A stretch of 64,000 bases of DNA from Escherichia coli (GCF_030013205.1 NZ_CP122648.1); one strand, 5' to 3'; shown: positions 1-60,075, counted from the first letter of the stretch. The notes: generated by a model not told the origin, from the sequence alone. Numbers and translations are program-made.

Positions 1-59
1 CAATGATTAATGTTGCGTCTTTGTTAGAGGTCAGATCAGTTGTTTTGGGACTCTGCCTC

Positions 60-383
60 AAAATCCGGTAGGGGGTGCGGAAACGGGTTACAAAGGTTAC
101 ACCCCCCTAAAACACACTATAATCATATGATTTTAAAACATATTTCTTGTAACCTTTTTGAGGTTACAGAAGGTTACACGAGGTTACAGCTCTCAAAAAC
201 AGATTAATTATCAATTAATTATAAATTTAACCTGTAACCAACAGTAACCACTACATAAAGGTTACATGTAACCCTGTTGTAACCCGTTTGTAACCTTTTA
301 AATTTATTATAATATATTGATATATAATACGTTTTTCTGTTTGTAACCTTTGTAACCCGTTTCCGCACCCCCCCCCGGATTTT
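60..383. repeat. iteron-like array: about 14 copies of heptamer GGTTACA/TGTAACC in AT-rich DNA, bracketed by about 43-bp near-perfect inverted repeats (60-102 and 341-383)
   Basis: direct reading; IR arms AAAATCCGGTAGGGGGTGCGGAAACGGGTTACAAAGGTTACA vs reverse complement of 341-383 differ at 1-2 positions. Confidence 0.8.
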
Positions 384-628
384 AGCGCGACCCTTTAAAA
401 TGTTAATTAAACTCACTAACTCTGTATCACTCTCATTAACTCTCTATGATTGAAATGTATCTCACTGCTGTTTAACTCTTTCTGATAATCAAGAAAGGAG
501 AGCAAAAAACTGATGGCGCTACCGCTGCAATATGGCCACCATCGCATTGCTGTTACCGTTGGCTTTGGCCAACAAAAAAGGCCAGTGGAAAACTGACCTC
601 TTTTGCTGTGAATGTAGTGTTCTGCGGG

Positions 629-1630
629 TTACTCTACTGGCTCTTTTTGTTCAGTGAATGCCATGTTAGCTATCGGGTTAAACCTCATGGCATCCGCCAG
701 ATAGTCGGGGGAAAAATGCGCATAAGTCATCGTTTGCTGGATAGTCGCATGTCCAAGAATCCGTTGTAATGTAACGATATTCCCACCGTTAATCATAAAG
801 TGTGTGGCAAATGTATGACGCATGACATGCGTAGCCTGCCCCTTCGGTAAATCCGGCTTCACCTCCTGAAGGATCTCCCGGAACTTCAGATAATCAACCT
901 GATACAACAACCCCGTCCGGCGGGTCTTAATCAGCGGCACGACCGAATCAGCCACAGGAACCGAACGGGATTTTCCGTTTTTGGTGTTAAAGAACGTCAC
1001 CCGGTTGCCAATGATGTGCTCTCCACGTAGTTCCGATGCTTCACTCCATCGGGCACCAGTAGAAAGACACAGAATGGCAACACGACGCGCATCACCCTCC
1101 AGTCGCTCAAGAAGCCGCTCAATCTCATCATCAGAAAGAAAGGCCATCTCTGTATTCTGAATTTTTAGCTTGCGTATACCGCGTACAGGGTTCGGGTTGT
1201 GAAAGACCTCAGCTTCAATCAGCACCGTGAACATGGTAGACAGAACGCACAAGTCACGATTAATGCTGGATGGCATTAAGCCGGCCTGTAATTTCTCTGA
1301 CCGATACTCAAGCATAAATTTTTGCGTCATCTGGCTGGCACGCGGATCTCCCATTTCACGAATCACTTTCTCCATCCGGATCCTGTAGGTATCACCGTAA
1401 GCCTGGTTACGGCCATCAAGCATCCACCATATATCAAGCAGCTCTGATAATCTCCGTCGATCAGCAGGTTTAGCCAGCCATGGGTTGTTATGGAAATTCT
1501 GTAAAATATGTTCTTTGAAGGCCTCCGCACTCCCTTTCCTGACAAAAATTTTACGTATCCGTTTGCCGTACGCCCCTTGGGGCCTGATATCGAGCAGCCA
1601 TCGCCCATCATCCATCTTTCTGATCGACAT
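629..1630 (-). CDS. int: tyrosine recombinase, P2-type phage integrase family
   Basis: 333 aa; N-terminus and C-terminal HxxR...Y catalytic region (HTFATHFMINGGNIVTLQRILGH...YAHF) resemble P2 Int; ATG and TAA verified on minus strand. Confidence 0.85.
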   Translation of the reverse strand: MSIRKMDDGRWLLDIRPQGAYGKRIRKIFVRKGSAEAFKEHILQNFHNNPWLAKPADRRRLSELLDIWWMLDGRNQAYGDTYRIRMEKVIREMGDPRASQMTQKFMLEYRSEKLQAGLMPSSINRDLCVLSTMFTVLIEAEVFHNPNPVRGIRKLKIQNTEMAFLSDDEIERLLERLEGDARRVAILCLSTGARWSEASELRGEHIIGNRVTFFNTKNGKSRSVPVADSVVPLIKTRRTGLLYQVDYLKFREILQEVKPDLPKGQATHVMRHTFATHFMINGGNIVTLQRILGHATIQQTMTYAHFSPDYLADAMRFNPIANMAFTEQKEPVE

Positions 1631-1632
1631 AC

Positions 1633-4302
1633 TTAAGCCCCCTCCTTGTTACTAAATATCCAGCATTTCAATACCTCCTTCTCTCTGGCCTCGGCTATTC
1701 CCCTCCCGGCGTTCGCCTGTCTGGATACCTCGCTACGGACGGGCTTGTATCCAATCAGCGATCGAGAACGGCCAGCCTTGAGAAGCTTTATCATTTCGGG
1801 ATTGGTTTGGGTCTTCACGTGGTGAACGGCGGCAACCTGCTCAAGTTGCGGGATACTGACGGCAAACTCATTCTGCCGTCCCTTGCCAAAATGATTTACG
1901 CCGTATGCTGTGATGCCGTCCAGATAGTCGAACGCCTCCCAGAACGCCATCACTTCCGGCAAGTCATCCATTACCGCTTTAGCCTGCTCCTCTGCCATTC
2001 GCTCCAGTTCCAGACATGTGGCATCAAGCCATTCATCCGGGATATCAATAACGCATTTCAGCGCCCTGACCAGTGCAATTAGTTGCGCGTGATTTTTGGC
2101 AATACGCTGATGGCGAATATTCTCGCAACCGTAAAGGCGGGTTGTTTCAGAATCCGAGAGTGCCATAAACAGATCCATAATCGCCCGCTCCTGGCTTACT
2201 GCCCGATGGATAAAACCTGATACCTGCTCAACGGGGTAAAGCTCCAGCCGTTTTGCTGCCAGTCGGCTATCTGGTGAGTGGCGTTTTTTATCGGTGTATA
2301 TACGTACCAGACGCTCGATAATTGCCGATGAGGCGTTTACCGTGGCATTCTGCGCAATCACGACAGCCCCTTTAAAAACGGGGTCATATGTGGCGTTATC
2401 ATTAGTTTTAACACCACGTACCCCAATACCACCGCCGTTATAGAGGCTTTTCAGGTTATCAAAGTCAAACGCACCTCTTTTTTGCGCATTGTCCCCCCGG
2501 TCTGCTTCAATCAGAACAACAGGTAATCCGGCGACCTGTCCAAAAGTTCGCTTCCAGCCTGATTCCGATCCTTTGGTTGGATCAACACCTTCATAGTTGT
2601 CACGGCCACACAAACGCCAACAAAAATCAATCAGCGTTGTTTTACCCGTTCCAGGCTCTCCGGTAATCTCAAGAAAAGGGTAAGACGTGTTTTTCTGCCT
2701 GATTTGTTCGCTGAACAACGAACCCAGCCAGAAGGCCAGGGTAATAATTCCCTTTTCACCAAAAGCCAGCCAGAGATCTTCCACCCAGGATATTGTGAAT
2801 TTATCCGGTTTTTTATAGTTAATCTGCAATATTGGTTTTTTATTCAATGGTTTTGCGTTTATGCCATCAATTTCAAAATAATCCTCTTCATTGATTTCGT
2901 AGGTTTTACCATTACAAACCGCGACATCATTAAACAGCCACGCGCCAATCTCTTTGTTGTATCCGATAAAATCCTGACCGATAACATTTTTTATTGCGGG
3001 AAGGTCATTTTTTATTAATGCATCAAGGTGCGCAGTCGTTCCGGTATAAATACCGCCTTTTGCCACATGCAACAGGCGTTTTTTAAATTCAGATGCGGAT
3101 GTTAATTGTCCTGATGTAAAGGTGTTTTTCACCGTCGCACCATCCGGGAACGTAACACGGAAGTAATACCATGCTTCATCCGTGTCATTGTTTCGAATGT
3201 AATAAAGCGGCGCCGGGTTACAGTTTGCGATTTCTTTTACAGCGCCGGATTCCTTAAGTGCAATTTTGCGCGCTTCATCTTCGTCAACATTTCGCTCATT
3301 TATGACGCGTTCAACAGCCTTCATATGGCGCTCAATATCCAGTTTGAACCAGAAAACACGGTTATCAAAAGTAAAATGAAATTCCTTTCGCTCACGAAAG
3401 GAAAACATTATCAGCGCCTTATCTCTCGGAGATTTTGCCAGCAATAAATCACCGTAATAACGGTATCTTTTCACATCATGGCCACGCAGCTTTCCGGCGA
3501 TGTGTAAATCATTCCAGTCGCGTTTATTGCTGTTTTTTCCTGGTAACGCCGCTGCCGTTCTCCAGCCGTCTTCGGCGCTGCGTTCTGCATGTTTTTTCGC
3601 ATAACGCTCACCCGCACGCCCGTTATCCAGCGCCCACACGATAACCGGACGGGGATTATCCCCGCACAGCTTCGCCAGCTCTTCCAGCGCCTTATCAGGG
3701 TAGTTTACGGCAGACATGACAGAAACGGCCGCAATGCCATTCTGGTTAAGGCTGATGGCATCAAAGATACCCTCACAAATCCAGATTTCTTTGGCCTTGC
3801 TTAAATCATCTCCCGGATAAGCCCACCACAACCCCTTGTAGCTGCCGGAAAAATTCGCCTTGCGCGCGAAGCGTTCCGGTCGGTCTATGATGCGCTCCCA
3901 CCACACGCCGTCAGCCAGTGTAAAACGCACAGTAGCGGCCTGTTCGCCGCTTTCCTTGTCCTGGTATCGCTCCTGAGTAAATGCTCCCTTCAGTGGCTCC
4001 ACAGCAATATTGCGTGCTTCCAGAAGATAAGCTGTCGCCGCTGCGTATGGATTGTCTTTCGTGCTGATATAGCGATCTGACCATGATGAAAACACATCCG
4101 GGTAAAGTTCTTTGGTCAACAGGTCTGTACCGCATTTATTTTCGCGCCCACAGTGCACGATGTACGGCCTTTCAAGGCTGGTAAAGAGCTCCTTCTTTCC
4201 ACATTGCGGACAAACACCATACCGGAGGTAGTTATTTTCTTCTTTGAAGTTGTAATCACGGATAAGACGGTTAATAATCTCTTTTCTGGTGTTATGTTTC
4301 AT
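1633..4302 (-). CDS. replicative primase-helicase (N-terminal zinc ribbon, TOPRIM-like primase core, C-terminal P-loop NTPase)
   Basis: 889 aa; CPQCG...HCGREN zinc motif, WICEGIFDAISL, Walker A GEPGTGKTT; stop lies 2 nt from integrase start. Confidence 0.8.
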   Translation of the reverse strand: MKHNTRKEIINRLIRDYNFKEENNYLRYGVCPQCGKKELFTSLERPYIVHCGRENKCGTDLLTKELYPDVFSSWSDRYISTKDNPYAAATAYLLEARNIAVEPLKGAFTQERYQDKESGEQAATVRFTLADGVWWERIIDRPERFARKANFSGSYKGLWWAYPGDDLSKAKEIWICEGIFDAISLNQNGIAAVSVMSAVNYPDKALEELAKLCGDNPRPVIVWALDNGRAGERYAKKHAERSAEDGWRTAAALPGKNSNKRDWNDLHIAGKLRGHDVKRYRYYGDLLLAKSPRDKALIMFSFRERKEFHFTFDNRVFWFKLDIERHMKAVERVINERNVDEDEARKIALKESGAVKEIANCNPAPLYYIRNNDTDEAWYYFRVTFPDGATVKNTFTSGQLTSASEFKKRLLHVAKGGIYTGTTAHLDALIKNDLPAIKNVIGQDFIGYNKEIGAWLFNDVAVCNGKTYEINEEDYFEIDGINAKPLNKKPILQINYKKPDKFTISWVEDLWLAFGEKGIITLAFWLGSLFSEQIRQKNTSYPFLEITGEPGTGKTTLIDFCWRLCGRDNYEGVDPTKGSESGWKRTFGQVAGLPVVLIEADRGDNAQKRGAFDFDNLKSLYNGGGIGVRGVKTNDNATYDPVFKGAVVIAQNATVNASSAIIERLVRIYTDKKRHSPDSRLAAKRLELYPVEQVSGFIHRAVSQERAIMDLFMALSDSETTRLYGCENIRHQRIAKNHAQLIALVRALKCVIDIPDEWLDATCLELERMAEEQAKAVMDDLPEVMAFWEAFDYLDGITAYGVNHFGKGRQNEFAVSIPQLEQVAAVHHVKTQTNPEMIKLLKAGRSRSLIGYKPVRSEVSRQANAGRGIAEAREKEVLKCWIFSNKEGA

Positions 4303-4310
4303 ATATAAAT

Positions 4311-4343
4311 CCCCCCCACTGCACCTTTTGCAGTGGGTTTTTT
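4311..4343 (+). terminator. hairpin CCCACTGCA-N4-TGCAGTGGG followed by T6 (plus-strand orientation)
   Basis: seen in sequence between 99-aa ORF stop and primase start; would block antisense read-through. Confidence 0.45.
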
Positions 4344-4348
4344 ATTAA

Positions 4349-4648
4349 TTACTCGTTGCTTATTGCTTTGGCAATCCCGGCGGTTTCGGCGCTATGCCAT
4401 GAAAAAATTCCGCCGGATGAATGCATACCAGATTTTATTGATTGTAATTCCCTATAAATAATGTTAGACAGAGATGCAATTTCTTCATTTATAATTTCTG
4501 CTGATGCTCCGCCATTTTTATCGTCAAAAACCACAGATATTAAACTGACGAGATTAATCACATCTGTGAGATCTTCCTTTGCACTTTCTGTAAAAAAGCC
4601 AACATATTCTCTATCTAAAAAATTTTCGCTATTCTGACGTTTAGACAT
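4349..4648 (-). CDS. hypothetical protein, 99 aa, AT-rich
   Basis: ORF track; low GC, no recognisable motif. Confidence 0.45.
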   Translation of the reverse strand: MSKRQNSENFLDREYVGFFTESAKEDLTDVINLVSLISVVFDDKNGGASAEIINEEIASLSNIIYRELQSIKSGMHSSGGIFSWHSAETAGIAKAISNE

Positions 4649-4715
4649 AAAAACTCCCCGACCCGTTAAGGCCGAAATATAAATTTAATTCAGTTATCAG
4701 TTGGTAATTCGGGAA

Positions 4716-4934
4716 TCAGGCGGAAAGCTGCGTCACCTTCAACGCCCTGAAATGTGTCATTCCCAGCTCTTCCAGCCCTTCGGCTGCGCGGCGTATGGCT
4801 TCGCCCGGTCCCGTTCCGTATACCGTTGCATGTGCATGTTTGGTTAACCCACGTTTATTAACGGCATAACCCAACACAAAGAAACGTTTTTCACCACTGC
4901 CATTATTTTTACGGGATGTTGAACGGGTTTTCAT
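4716..4934 (-). CDS. hypothetical small protein, 72 aa
   Basis: ORF track; start overlaps upstream stop (ATGA), suggesting translational coupling. Confidence 0.45.
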   Translation of the reverse strand: MKTRSTSRKNNGSGEKRFFVLGYAVNKRGLTKHAHATVYGTGPGEAIRRAAEGLEELGMTHFRALKVTQLSA

Positions 4935-5119
4935 TTCTTCACCTTTACCACTGATGCTGTGAGTTCTTCTTCTGGCAACTGATATTTCGGCGCAATTTCT
5001 TCCGTATACCTGATAGCGTCCCTTGCCGCTTTTCCTTTTGATTTATATTTATATGTGGTCCGGTAGTTTTCTTCCTCTCCTGTTACCACATTACGCAATT
5101 TAATATGAATCTCGTACAT
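4931..5119 (-). CDS. hypothetical small protein, about 62 aa (start at MYEIH)
   Basis: ORF track 4931..5149; internal ATG preceded by GGAGGGG and placed 2 nt after upstream stop. Confidence 0.4.
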   Translation of the reverse strand: MYEIHIKLRNVVTGEEENYRTTYKYKSKGKAARDAIRYTEEIAPKYQLPEEELTASVVKVKK

Positions 5120-5121
5120 CG

Positions 5122-5304
5122 TTACCCCTCCATGATTTTTACTGCGCATTTGTGGGTTAATCGCCCCTGTTCATTCGTGCGGCTGTACTCCATGCGGCTG
5201 GCAGCACGCAGGGCATCATCACAGGTCTGATATTCCCTGACATGAAAAAACTGACGAACGTCGCCGCTCTGGCAGTTAATCAGGGTGATAAGGAGCTTAA
5301 ACAT
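5122..5304 (-). CDS. hypothetical small protein, about 60 aa (MFKLLITLINCQ...)
   Basis: ORF track 5122..5382; ATG overlaps stop of upstream 57-aa ORF (ATGTTTAA). Confidence 0.4.
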   Translation of the reverse strand: MFKLLITLINCQSGDVRQFFHVREYQTCDDALRAASRMEYSRTNEQGRLTHKCAVKIMEG

Positions 5305-5470
5305 TGCACGCCTCCCGGATACGAATACGGGCAACAGAGACCAGACGGGATGCCGGAAGCAGGGCGCGCGCTTCGCGCTCACTGGCGGCGGTAACGGTAT
5401 GAAGGCGGATATTTTTACCGTGGCACTGCATAAAGCGCCAGATAAAATCAGGGCGTGTTGATATAGCCAT
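5297..5470 (-). CDS. hypothetical small protein, about 57 aa (MAISTRPDFIWRF...)
   Basis: C-terminal part of track ORF 5297..5824; ATG preceded by AAGGAG; upstream part of the track ORF judged noncoding. Confidence 0.4.
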   Translation of the reverse strand: MAISTRPDFIWRFMQCHGKNIRLHTVTAASEREARALLPASRLVSVARIRIREACNV

Positions 5471-5594
5471 TTTGGCGGCTCCTTTGTCTAATTTACGGAG
5501 TCTCGCCAGCACGCTGCTAAACATGGTGGCGGGACGTAACAGGGTTAGCAGACTGGTGACAAAGAAACCAGCAGGCCTTACGGCCTCCCCATTA

Positions 5595-5718
5595 CGCCCC
5601 GCCATAATACGGGAAAGGGTGGTATTACGGGCACAAAAAAACCGCATTACGGAAATATAGCGGCTACCCGCTTTGTCAATCAGGCTGCTAAACCCGGCAC
5701 CCGCTTTATGAGGTGCGG
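5595..5718 (-). ncRNA. conserved three-block noncoding element, copy A (hairpin, then T7-terminated block, then ATTATGGCGGGGCG on minus strand); candidate sRNA or leader attenuator
   Basis: blocks CGCCCCGCCATAAT, GCACAAAAAAACCGC and CAGGCTGC.AAACCCGGCACCCG.TT..TGAGGTGC recur in same order and similar spacing at 59946-60075. Confidence 0.4.
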
Positions 5719-5865
5719 GCAAACGATACGCCATGACAAAAAAGCGAGTCAAGCAATATTGCAAATTATTTTTGCGTGATTGCGCTGAGTAATTGATTTT
5801 TAAGAGTAAAAAAGCCATAATCATTTCTGCCTATTATTTCTTATTGTTGGTTTCAGGTGCACTAA

Positions 5866-5925
5866 ATGCACATCCTTGACTGGTTGGCTCGCTAGCTTTA
5901 GCGAGCTTCTTTTTTGCTCTGCAGC
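5866..5925 (+). terminator. two stem-loops (GTGCA-CTAAA-TGCAC; GCTCGCTAGCTTTAGCGAGC) followed by TTCTTTTTT; intrinsic terminator or sRNA 3' end
   Basis: seen in sequence; no convincing ORF on plus strand upstream. Confidence 0.45.
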
Positions 5926-6377
5926 CAGTACCCGGCCTCCTTCCCTCACATGTAGTCATGTGCTCATTCCAGTCAGGTGGATAATGCTGTATTACCGGAC
6001 ATCCGGTTATGATGTTTAAAGCGTTTGTTTGTTTATGCCACGTGGAGAATATACCCACGCCGCCATTACTTGTATTTATCATAACAGTTCATCCAATTCG
6101 GTTAATGTAACCGGAATAACTCAATTTCATACACTGTAAATAAATGCTGATTTTAAACTTAGCTCCTTGGAATATATTTCTTACGTGTGACGTACAGGTG
6201 AAAATATCCCTCTGATAGTCCATTTTCTTTTATTGGGTCACATCTTTTTACTCCGGTTCCCTTAACAAGGGTAGAGCATCTTTTAAACCATGAATGCATC
6301 TTTGGTTAAGTGATGTTTCTTATTGAATGAAATGTTTAGGCGCATATCGCGCCATGCTGACTATAAAGTGAAAATAA

Positions 6378-6599
6378 TTAAGCCTGAAAACGTTGTTGTT
6401 TTCTTTCTTCTATCCAGTCGATAATTTCCTCTTCAACCCATGCAACCGCACGAGGGCCTATTTTTATTGGTTTGGGGAATATATCCGATTTTATATCTTC
6501 GTAAATTCGAGCTCTCGATCTCCCTGTGATTTCAATGACTCTGGGGAGTCTTATTAATTTTTGAATCCGCCTTTCGCTGGTCTGTGAGTATGCTGACAT
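6378..6599 (-). CDS. alpA: AlpA-family transcriptional regulator / excisionase-like (prophage CP4-57 AlpA type)
   Basis: 73 aa; helix-turn-helix region ...RLPRVIEITGRSRARIYEDIKSDIFPKPIKIGPRAVAWVEEEIIDWI... typical of AlpA. Confidence 0.8.
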   Translation of the reverse strand: MSAYSQTSERRIQKLIRLPRVIEITGRSRARIYEDIKSDIFPKPIKIGPRAVAWVEEEIIDWIEERKQQRFQA

Positions 6600-7117
6600 A
6601 TTGGCCTCCTGTATATGCTGAACACTTTACGTTAGCTCACAGTGGGAGCATGTAAGATCTCGCGGTCGTCTGCGGGACGAGAAAAATCATAAACAACGAA
6701 AAGCGGATTTGTAAATCAGGTCGATTTTTAGACGGGGTTGACATGGACAGTTAGATTTGTTCCATGCGTGAAATATACATTTAGAGCCACTTTAAACCAC
6801 CAGAAAGCGACAAAGAATAACAAGTTAGTGCCAGAAAGGTTTGCTGACTTACCCTTTTAGGCACCAGAAAAGCCCTTTCAGGTCGGTGTAATGCTTGTGA
6901 ACGCTGAAATAGTGGATTCTGAAAACAAAAAAAGAGTTGAAAATGTGATGTGCATCAAAAAATAATATCGATAAAACAGTTTGATTTTTATTTTCTTATC
7001 AAAAGCACTGGTTGATTATGGGAAATGCATTATAAATCAAATGGATATATCTATTTTTTTAGGTTAAAAATCACCAGGTGCTTTTAGTGAGGTCTTATTC
7101 TATTGATTTTAAAAGAT

Positions 7118-7152
7118 AAAAAAATCGGCGTGTCCACATATTGTCCACGCCT
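7118..7152 (-). terminator. intrinsic terminator downstream of integrase (hairpin GGCGTG...CACGCC plus T7 on minus strand)
   Basis: seen in sequence about 45 nt after int stop. Confidence 0.5.
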
Positions 7153-7198
7153 TGAGTTTAATTCAGCCGCTTGGGGTAGTTTAGTTTGTTGAGTTGAT

Positions 7199-8461
7199 TC
7201 AGTTTGTTTCGTTAGCCCATTTAAAATCATAGGGGGCAATATATGCCGTCTTGCAGGTGTCGAGATAATCAGCCCACCATTGCAACATTCGGCGGCGTTC
7301 CTGCATATGTTCAGCTCTGTGAACGTATGCAGCCCGGACACTGCCTCTTTCCCTGTGACTCATCTGAAGCTCAACGGCTTCTCTTGTCCACCTGCCTGAC
7401 TCTGTCAGCGCCGAACAGGCCATGGCCCTGAATCCGTGACCACAAATATCTTTTTTGGTGTCGTATCCCATGTGGCGTAATGCCTTGTTAATGGTGTTTT
7501 CGCTCATCGGTTTTATCTGGTAATGGTCGCCGGGGAAAATAAACACTTCATCACCGGATATATTTCTTATATCGTCAAGAAGCTGCATGGCCTGAGTGGG
7601 TAAAGGGATGGCGTGAGGGGTCCCCATTTTCGTTCCACGATATGAATATTTTACGCCTTCTATTTTTTCGCGTTCTGCTGGTATTACCCACATTGATTTA
7701 TCAAAATCAATTTCATTCCAACGAGCAAAGCGCAATTCACTTGAGCGAATAAAAATTAATAAATTTAATTTTAGTGCAAATTGCGTTAATAACCGTCCAT
7801 TCATCTTATGGTGGTAATCATTTATTTTGCCAAGTAATTCAGGTAATCGCTCAAGGGGAAGAGCGGGGCGATGTTTGGTTTTATTGGTTTCTATTGCACC
7901 GTTCAGTTCCTGTGCTGGATTGTATTTAATCATTCCATTCTGTACAGCGTAGCGCATAATGGCGTTCATTCGCTGCTTGTTACGAGATGCTGTCTCAAGC
8001 ACTCCTTTATCTTCCATTTTGCGTAAAGGAATCAGTAGATCCATGGTTGTGATCTCGTTAATTGGTCTTTTACCAAGAATGGGGAAGATGTGGTTTTCCA
8101 GGTCTTTTAAGACTTTTTGTGCGTGCAATTCGCTCCAGCCTTTTTTCCGGCTGTGCCACTCTCTGGCAACGTCTTCAAAAAGCACTATTTGAGGTTTTGG
8201 AGTGTGCAGTGGGTCAATGCCTTTAGCCAGGCTCGCCAGATATTCATCACGAGCGTTCCTTGCCTGTGCAAGTGTTACGGCAGGATAAATGCCTAAAGCT
8301 CGGGTCGTTTCTTTACCGTTGATAACCTTGCGAAAGCGCCAGTATTTTGAGCCGTTGGGGTGAACATAGAGATACAGCCCTTTCCCGTCACGAAGTTTTT
8401 TAATTTTGTTGTTGTCCTTATCTGGTTTGGCGTTACGTACAGCTACATCAGTCAGTTTCAT
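7199..8461 (-). CDS. int: P4-type (tRNA-associated) tyrosine integrase
   Basis: track ORF 7199..8503 is labelled '+', but the reverse complement from 8503 reads TTG GTT CGA ... ATG AAA CTG ACT and plus strand at 7199-7201 is the stop; likely ATG start at 8461 (MKLTDVAVRNAKPD...). Confidence 0.9.
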   Translation of the reverse strand: MKLTDVAVRNAKPDKDNNKIKKLRDGKGLYLYVHPNGSKYWRFRKVINGKETTRALGIYPAVTLAQARNARDEYLASLAKGIDPLHTPKPQIVLFEDVAREWHSRKKGWSELHAQKVLKDLENHIFPILGKRPINEITTMDLLIPLRKMEDKGVLETASRNKQRMNAIMRYAVQNGMIKYNPAQELNGAIETNKTKHRPALPLERLPELLGKINDYHHKMNGRLLTQFALKLNLLIFIRSSELRFARWNEIDFDKSMWVIPAEREKIEGVKYSYRGTKMGTPHAIPLPTQAMQLLDDIRNISGDEVFIFPGDHYQIKPMSENTINKALRHMGYDTKKDICGHGFRAMACSALTESGRWTREAVELQMSHRERGSVRAAYVHRAEHMQERRRMLQWWADYLDTCKTAYIAPYDFKWANETN

Positions 8462-8639
8462 TATGTTGCTCCTCCAGACGGGTACAAATAAAAATCGAAC
8501 CAAGCATACCCGTTTTTATACCCATTTTAATATGGGCTTCAGGCAAATTTAACGAGAGATAACGAGACAATGGAAGAGGTTTAACTCATTGAAAATCAAT
8601 GGGTAATGGTTTTTTCTGAGAGATTGCGAGAAGTTGCGA

Positions 8640-8714
8640 TGGTGTCCCCTGCAGGAATCGAACCTGCAATTAGCCCTTAGGAGGGGCTCGTTATATCCAT
8701 TTAACTAAGAGGAC
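8640..8714 (-). tRNA. argW: tRNA-Arg (anticodon CCU)
   Basis: reverse complement reads GTCCTCTTAGTTAAATGGATATAACGAGCCCCTCCTAAGGGCTAATTGCAGGTTCGATTCCTGCAGGGGACACCA with T-arm GGTTCGATTCC and CCA end. Confidence 0.9.
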
Positions 8715-8789
8715 AATGCGGCATGAGTATACCCGCTAATGGACTGCGGGGTAAGTACGCTGCCGCTCGATTGCTTAAACCCTCGCCAT

Positions 8790-53905: not shown

Positions 53906-54298
53906 CTCCTGTATCAGTCAGATAATTTCACGACGCTTTCCTGCTTATTGCCATCATCGACGGTCAGACTCTTACGCAATCCCACCGCGTTGACTGCATG
54001 TTCTTCGACGCCTCAGTGCGATTTTGACGGCCTTACCTTTCACCCCATCAAATTAGAATCCCTCACGTCTTTTTCACACTCAGCGTGAGAAATACAGCCA
54101 TTCTGTTGTGTTGCTGCGACATCGTTCAGGGGATGCTATTTACCCCCTGAAACGCGGGCTGTTCCCCCGTCACCTGCGCGCAGAAAAAACGCGTTTTTTT
54201 GTGCACGTACGGATCCTTGACGGATCCAGCCACCACGCGGGCCGGAAGTACAAAAAGTCGTTCAAAAAAATTGTGCAAACTTGTGCACTATCGTGCAA

Positions 54299-59816: not shown

Positions 59817-59945
59817 GGTGTGGCCCCTTGTGTAGTAAGTTGTGAAAACTCACCATCCAGAGCTGCGAAACTGTGGGTGGCGAGACGTACGAGGTTCGCA
59901 GTACCGGCTACACAAGAACCCGGCCCGACCGAAGTCGGCCCCGTA

Positions 59946-60075
59946 CGCCCCGCCATAATTCTGACGCGAAAAAAACGTGGCAATACAGTACGCACAAAAA
60001 AACCGCTGGCGCGGTTGTGCGCTTGTGTAGTCAGCAGGCTGCGAAACCCGGCACCCGTTTTGTGAGGTGCAGCGG
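59946..60075 (-). ncRNA. conserved three-block noncoding element, copy B (candidate sRNA/attenuator; minus-strand hairpin plus ACCGC-GCCA-GCGGT-T7 terminator)
   Basis: same three blocks as 5595-5718 in same order; track ORF 59510..60127 judged a spurious translation. Confidence 0.4.

Follow-up and report, generated by a model that had tools for sequence, protein, structure and literature searches.

The integrase gene beside argW

The DNA analyzed here, hereafter the window, is a 64,000-nt stretch of the Escherichia coli chromosome. It corresponds to the chromosome of ETEC4079, a porcine ETEC strain (NZ_CP122643.1, from position 1599726), and the match is exact over window positions 1–11500 and 11275–61274. 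Two genes of the minus strand stand next to each other in it:

8640–8714, minus strand: argW, tRNA-Arg (CCU), intact and identical to K-12 argW (ARAGORN; Rfam tRNA, 63.4 bits)
7199–8461, minus strand: integrase coding sequence, 420 aa, P4-family tyrosine recombinase, RefSeq WP_021534766.1 (ORF list, six-frame check, Shine-Dalgarno sequence, Pfam, PGAP)

The integrase gene has the same orientation as argW and is transcribed away from it, since the 3′ end of the tRNA gene lies at 8640 and the start codon at 8461, 178 nt downstream on the same strand. K-12 shows the same geometry, with argW and intS on one strand and intS starting 161 nt after argW, as does P4, in which about 150 nt separate int from the attP core upstream of it. 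The original prediction that the gene runs away from argW on the minus strand, in the usual tRNA–integrase arrangement, is thus borne out.

The same prediction held that the ORF track lists this gene on the plus strand, in contradiction to the sequence. Such a listing was not reproduced: the entry in the mechanical ORF list is "7199..8503 - 434aa TTG", i.e., the minus strand, and in the PGAP annotation of ETEC4079 the complement strand at window positions 7199–8461 carries WP_021534766.1 ("tyrosine-type recombinase/integrase", 420 aa). What had been read from the DNA, by comparison, is correct. The plus strand at 7199–7201 is TCA, the reverse complement of the stop codon TGA. When the six-frame translation was re-run over 7199–8503, the stops in the plus-strand frames numbered 20, 15, and 14, none of these frames stayed open for more than 79 codons, and none yielded the integrase protein; minus frame 0 is uninterrupted for 434 codons and is terminated by TGA. 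Integrase domains were likewise detected by Pfam in the minus-strand product only. A gene on the plus strand, whose sole support is the reported label, has practically no chance of being real against these stops, the two annotations, and the domain matches. As the ORF tool and RefSeq both give the minus strand, there is no contradiction in the DNA itself, and the supposed one is a matter of labelling or reading without biological content, useful as a quality check on the ORF track or its reading. The gene is already annotated in RefSeq, its arrangement with the tRNA gene is the textbook one, and it presents no biological anomaly.

Translation from 8503, also part of that prediction, holds for the frame and probably not for the start. 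The open minus frame does reach TTG 8503, the first possible start codon past the upstream stop, but this codon has no Shine-Dalgarno sequence, whereas GGAGGAG stands 7 nt upstream of ATG 8461. Moreover, PGAP chooses 8461, and the alignments of P4 Int, IntS, and a relative with 92% identity begin at the MKLT... position, so that their N-termini match a start at ATG 8461. The most likely start is ATG 8461, giving 420 aa. Initiation at TTG 8503 with a 434-aa product is very improbable, and the longer form seems to be an artefact of the "first possible start" rule.

The 420-aa protein contains Arm-DNA-bind_3 (residues 3–86), Phage_int_M (residues 95–189), and Phage_integrase (residues 209–384) domains, all far above the Pfam gathering scores (2.2e-15 for the catalytic domain, PF00589). 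In an alignment with P4 Int, IntS, and the 92%-identical relative, residues R239, K278, H342, R345, H369, and Y379 are invariant, which indicates that the catalytic apparatus is intact; both the catalytic pentad and the tyrosine nucleophile that define tyrosine recombinases are present. The best characterized relative is P4 Int (440 aa), with 52.5% identity over 97% of the length (E 2e-128). Its three-domain architecture is the same, its catalytic residues are conserved, and the homology is full-length, as in P4-type integrases generally. A sequence search of the PDB returned solved structures only for isolated N-terminal or central domains of relatives (3ju0, 3jtz, 2kkv, and 2kj8; CP4-like and CPS-53 integrases).

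Further features in common with P4 are a target at the 3′ end of a tRNA gene, a core 150–180 nt upstream of int, and a Vis/AlpA-type partner. The differences lie in the core (GAGTCCGGCCTTCGGCACCA in P4, CTGCAGGGGACACCA here), in the arm motif (GGGGGCAT in P4, GGGTAYAAA here), and in the target, which for P4 is leuX, unlike argW here. In addition, P4 int is followed by cII/beta/gop and late genes, whereas int is followed here directly by alpA and an immunity–replication block. Another comparison is offered by CP4-57 (IntA/AlpA, at ssrA) and other CP4-type islands, in which a P4-type integrase lies beside a tRNA or tmRNA gene and is followed by an AlpA-family regulator, as observed here, although the target and cargo of CP4-57 differ. 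AlpA-driven excision is described as established for CP4-57 (Kirby et al. 1994, as cited in PMC8628076).

The possibility that the gene encodes the integrase of CPS-53 (KpLE1) was considered and rejected. The true intS (WP_000958656.1) is a separate gene 12.7 kb away in the genome, and IntS shares only 33% identity with the argW-adjacent integrase, so the two are not orthologs. IntS belongs to the same family, has the same orientation relative to argW, and uses an identical 15-nt core at the argW end. Yet it is a different protein of 385 aa without the insertion around the β-hairpin, and its partner is TorI, a recombination directionality factor (RDF) that is not of the AlpA type.

Attachment sites and insertion boundaries

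The end of argW and the spacer between argW and the integrase gene contain the following elements:

8640–8654, minus strand: att core CTGCAGGGGACACCA, at the very end of argW (15 nt); the CPS-53 core in K-12 (pawZ) has the same sequence
8462–8639, minus strand: int-proximal arm of the att site (P′ arm of attL), from a motif scan
8515–8523, minus strand: candidate arm-type repeat GGGTAYAAA, from a motif scan
about 8504–8511, minus strand: tandem partial copy of the arm repeat, GGGTATGC, from a motif scan
8480–8488, plus strand: inverted copy of the arm repeat, just upstream of the int ribosome-binding site

In the direction of the tRNA, the argW end reads ...GGTTCGATTCCTGCAGGGGACACCA and continues into element DNA (TCGCAACTTCTCGC...). 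The far end of the element, 12.7 kb off, reads ...AAGATGATTT-CTGCAGGGACACCA and continues into TTTATCAGTTCGCTCCCATCC.... The core copy at this end, CTGCAGGG-ACACCA, matches 14 of the 15 nt and lies next to intS, outside the window (4970–4983 in the coordinates of L002, in which 8679–8844 corresponds to 156–321 nt left of window position 1). TTTATCAGTTCGCTCCCATCC is exactly the sequence that follows argW in K-12, i.e., the start of the cryptic prophage CPS-53. Since the sequence at K-12 argW matches the far flank, the K-12 arrangement represents the state before insertion. The predicted restored junction between argW and CPS-53 is ...CTGCAGGGGACACCATTTATCAGTTCGC..., and in K-12 argW directly abuts the CPS-53 sequence. 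The core of CPS-53 is likewise the 15-nt sequence at the end of argW, as is evident from pawZ at the other end of that prophage. The hallmarks of P4-type integration, namely a core at the 3′ end of a tRNA gene, a direct repeat at the far end, and a regenerated tRNA gene, are all present. Furthermore, a query was built in which argW runs straight into the flank outside the STEC316 element. Many E. coli genomes match this empty-site sequence without interruption (502/502), and its coverage is at least 80% in 1415 genomes. The insertion at argW is precise, and the empty site exists in other genomes, for example in strains 120899 and M217.

The far core is one G shorter than the core within argW. 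A random mutation was rejected as the cause, given that the short form recurs in K_EC180, ETEC4079, STEC316, and ECCNB12-2 with three different outer flanks; this recurrence indicates that the short core is carried by the element. As attL has GGGG and attR has GGG, strand exchange would take place 3′ of the G run, and the crossover probably falls in the last ≤9 nt of argW (GGGACACCA).

The 64-kb window has just two exact copies of GGGTAYAAA, and the 178 nt separating argW from int contain both. Two more, in tandem, are found close to the opposite end of the element, on its inner side (L002 5042–5061), and the layout of the repeats is conserved in the diverged STEC316 element. It mirrors P4 attP, which has two tandem repeats per arm and an inverted one at the start of int, with another motif. 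The integrase probably binds the GGGTAYAAA repeats.

In the same region, a simple sigma-70 scan of 6300–8800 called no promoter directly upstream of int, and the promoter and terminator counts over this range were at chance level overall. A terminator-like hairpin with a T-run lies on the plus strand at 8584–8604, between argW and int and antisense to both. Read on the minus strand, this hairpin comes after argW and lacks a T-run.

A mechanism can be proposed by analogy with the integrase family. GGGTAYAAA-type repeats flanking attP would be bound by the N-terminal arm-binding domain and the core sites at the argW end by the central and catalytic domains, and Tyr379 would exchange the strands within the final ≤9 nt of the tRNA gene. 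By this route, the element would have inserted between argW and a resident CPS-53-like element sharing its 15-nt core, producing a tandem array; argW would have been preserved whole (attL), with an imperfect 14-nt copy of the core marking the far end (attR). The AlpA/Vis-like protein encoded downstream would act as the excision factor. The argW–dsdCXA region is described as a highly variable hotspot in E. coli (Moritz and Welch 2006, as cited in PMC3032704 and PMC2808357).

Gene content and relation to P2-family phages

Within the window, the rest of the element has these features:

6378–6599, minus strand: AlpA/Vis-like helix-turn-helix (HTH) protein, 73 aa (Pfam Phage_AlpA, 5.5e-17; PHROG "excisionase and transcriptional regulator")
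5297–5824, minus strand: Icd-like ORF enclosing the C4-type and isrK-like RNAs (NCBIfam phage_ICD_like)
5635–5716, minus strand: isrK-like RNA (Rfam RF01394, 52.1 bits)
5522–5609, minus strand: C4-type antisense RNA (Rfam RF01695, 79.7 bits)
1633–4302, minus strand: primase-helicase, 889 aa (PHROG 1139 DNA primase, 4e-302; Pfam Toprim_2)
629–1630, minus strand: P2-type tyrosine recombinase, 333 aa, directly downstream of the primase-helicase (Pfam Int_N, Phage_integrase)
60–383, no strand assigned: iteron-like array with 13 GGTTACA/TGTAACC copies in both orientations and an AT-rich center

Leftwards from argW, and all on the minus strand, int is followed by a 600-bp AT-rich spacer, the alpA/Vis-like gene, the C4 and isrK RNAs in the Icd-like ORF, four small ORFs, the primase-helicase gene, the P2-type integrase gene, and a gene-free segment of 1.17 kb. 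The element extends past the window on the left with an Ogr/Delta zinc-finger gene, two hypothetical genes, a P2-family capsid homologue, and MazEF, followed by the far att site and intS.

The AlpA/Vis-like protein shares 36% identity with P4 Vis over 45 aa and is a likely candidate for both the excision factor (RDF) and the regulator of the integration module. The segment 5522–5716 appears to be the RNA immunity region of the element, of the P4/P1 type. The primase-helicase has the zinc finger, Toprim, and Walker A architecture of P4 alpha, with BLASTP similarity at the motif level only (E 6e-4). The P2-type integrase shows no meaningful similarity to the argW integrase; it is 55% identical to Peduovirus integrases and 87.5% identical to Int of phage vB_EcoM-569R5. 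Matches to the pair formed by this integrase and the primase occur in 363 of 5426 E. coli genomes, only 20 of which cover at least 80% of the 2.5-kb query. This second recombinase might provide a second integration module, multimer resolution, or helper interference. The iteron-like array is bounded by 42-nt inverted repeats (60–101 and 342–383) that are 95% complementary. The whole window contains 18 GGTTACA/TGTAACC sites, compared with 5.9 expected, and 13 of them fall within 86–357. The array looks like a replication origin comparable to P4 ori/crr and is a candidate for that function.

Just outside the window, the 60-aa Ogr_Delta zinc-finger protein shares 39% identity with P4 delta over the first half of the latter. 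The capsid homologue (L002 5842–7113, minus strand) is a 423-aa relative of P2-family major capsid proteins (Phage_cap_P2, 5e-73), with an N-terminal extension of about 120 aa and 38% identity to the gpN fragment of the resident prophage. It is preceded by a 236-aa protein without a family match (L002 7113–7823, minus strand). In STEC316 (L005 13355–15293), a very different pair, with 24% identity, lies between alpA and the Icd-like gene. At the distal end of the element, a MazE/MazF toxin–antitoxin pair (L002 5206–5798, plus strand) adjoins attR. Variable anti-phage cargo hotspots are among the features that PMC9122126 describes for P4-like satellites; the MazEF site may correspond to them.

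P4-like satellites have been defined by int, psu, delta, and sid together with alpA, epsilon, and alpha (PMC8628076). Similar to those described by Moura de Sousa and Rocha (PMC8628076, PMC10085698), the argW element has an integrase, AlpA, a delta-like zinc finger, a primase-helicase, RNA immunity of the CI/C4 type, a size of about 12 kb, and variable cargo at one end, in this case MazEF. It differs from them in carrying the capsid homologue and the P2-type integrase in addition, and its gene order is not that of P4. A tblastn search of all P4 proteins against the whole element matched Int and Vis only; at E 1e-3 there was no match to alpha, sid, psu, or epsilon, a threshold at which very distant homologues could escape. 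Thus, with integrase and AlpA present and the canonical sid, psu, and epsilon undetected, the term "P4-like satellite" applies only loosely: judged by its gene content, the element is P4-like in logic and stands outside the published seven-gene definition (PMC8628076). The 19-nt cos sequence of P2/P4 had no match in the element with up to three mismatches, and a BLAST comparison of the P4 cos region with the gene-free segment of the element gave nothing.

A degraded P88-like prophage (Peduoviridae, Xuanwuvirus-type) occupies positions ~38950–64000 of the window, about 30 kb from the element. It contains Hok/Gef, ogr/Delta, tail genes, terminase, portal, ParM, and a replication endonuclease, and its capsid and tail-fibre genes are annotated as truncated pseudogenes. 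Two segments of this prophage have counterparts in the element. One is a 167-bp segment of the gene-free region (L002 8679–8844), which is 79% identical to window positions 54132–54297, between the portal and partition genes of the prophage; the same segment adjoins the portal gene in phage P88. Since P2-type phages have cos at that position, it may be a packaging site matched to the helper. That the segment of about 160 bp is the attP arm of the P2-type integrase was rejected, as in P88 it adjoins the portal gene, at the cos position. The other counterpart is the pair of C4 and isrK-like RNAs, found on the minus strand at 5522–5716 in the element and at 59873–60070 in the prophage, with 69% identity over about 200 nt. 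The similarity suggests that the RNA immunity regions of the satellite and its putative helper are related. As the helper-type prophage in the window is degraded, present-day mobilization in this strain is doubtful.

An alternative is that the integrase is part of a PICI-type element or of some generic genomic island rather than of a satellite that depends on a P2-family helper. The int-alpA-primase order resembles that of Gram-negative PICIs, and such an origin would be in keeping with the undetected P4 sid, psu, epsilon, and close alpha homologue and with the absent P2/P4 cos sequence. It would leave unaccounted for the Ogr/Delta-type activator, the P2-family capsid homologue, and the P2-type integrase that the element carries, as well as the portal-adjacent 167-bp similarity to the P88-like prophage and the C4 immunity region of the P4 type. 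On balance, a generic island or PICI is unlikely. With a probability of roughly 0.9, the minus-strand gene at 7199–8461 is an intact 420-aa P4-family integrase that serves as the integration module of a satellite of about 12.7 kb, apparently dependent on a P2-family helper, at the 3′ end of argW.

Distribution, module exchange, and activity

Among 5426 complete E. coli genomes, 26 have this integrase at argW. Most are porcine ETEC, and bovine, chicken, and human isolates are also represented. This patchy presence across different hosts and countries argues for recent mobility. In mip270_05 (L008 6001–18600), the same backbone, from MazEF to the Icd-like gene, is present with 92.7% identity between hpt and gcd. 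It does not lie at a tRNA gene there, and the genes that accompany it are those of another integrase (399 aa), a hypothetical protein of 350 aa, and another HTH protein. A backbone with another integrase module indicates that the int/alpA block (about 5955–8640) is exchangeable and sets the insertion site. Such an exchange would be in line with published work that regards integrase swapping in satellites as frequent (PMC8628076). Other copies of the element have been altered: in K_EC180 (L001 ~6060–6101), a 1.7-kb internal deletion fuses ogr/delta to the P2-type integrase, and in the bovine strains E92 and E94 an IS5 lies inside the argW integrase gene and splits it.

These losses bear on whether the integrase is an intact-looking but inactive relic, in an island that has become fixed and cryptic like CPS-53 in K-12. 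Besides the decay of its relatives, the truncation of the nearby P2-family prophage would fit such a state, and the predicted attP junction (...AAGATGATTTCTGCAGGGACACCATCGCAACTTCTCGC...) had no match in IMG/VR viral contigs or JGI metagenome contigs. However, the ORF is full length with every catalytic residue in place, the arm repeats are kept at both ends and also in an 87%-identical relative, the insertion boundaries are precise, and the element is patchily distributed. An inactive relic is accordingly less favored and appears rather unlikely. The four features just named speak for an integrase that is functional or was so recently.

A broader reading, which we put forward tentatively and regard as possible though doubtful, is that the argW integrase is the swappable, site-determining module of an undescribed lineage of satellites of P2-family (P88/Xuanwuvirus-type) phages. 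The lineage would lack sid, psu, and epsilon. It would encode a gpN-type capsid homologue of its own, in diverged form, and a second integrase of the P2 type, and would contain a GGTTACA iteron origin together with a helper-like segment in the portal-adjacent (cos) position and a helper-like C4/isrK RNA pair. A literature search found no description of such satellites, including Xuanwuvirus satellites. If the reading is true, the capsid protein of the satellite itself, instead of an external scaffold, might serve to remodel or replace the capsid of the helper.

For E. coli, the integrase marks the boundary of a mobile element at the argW–dsdCXA hotspot, where two unrelated elements with one common 15-nt core form a tandem array. 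For the satellite, it illustrates a backbone that accepts different integrase modules. The wider value of the locus is modest and lies in an element with apparently helper-derived parts, i.e., the capsid homologue, the P2-type integrase, and the segment at the cos position.
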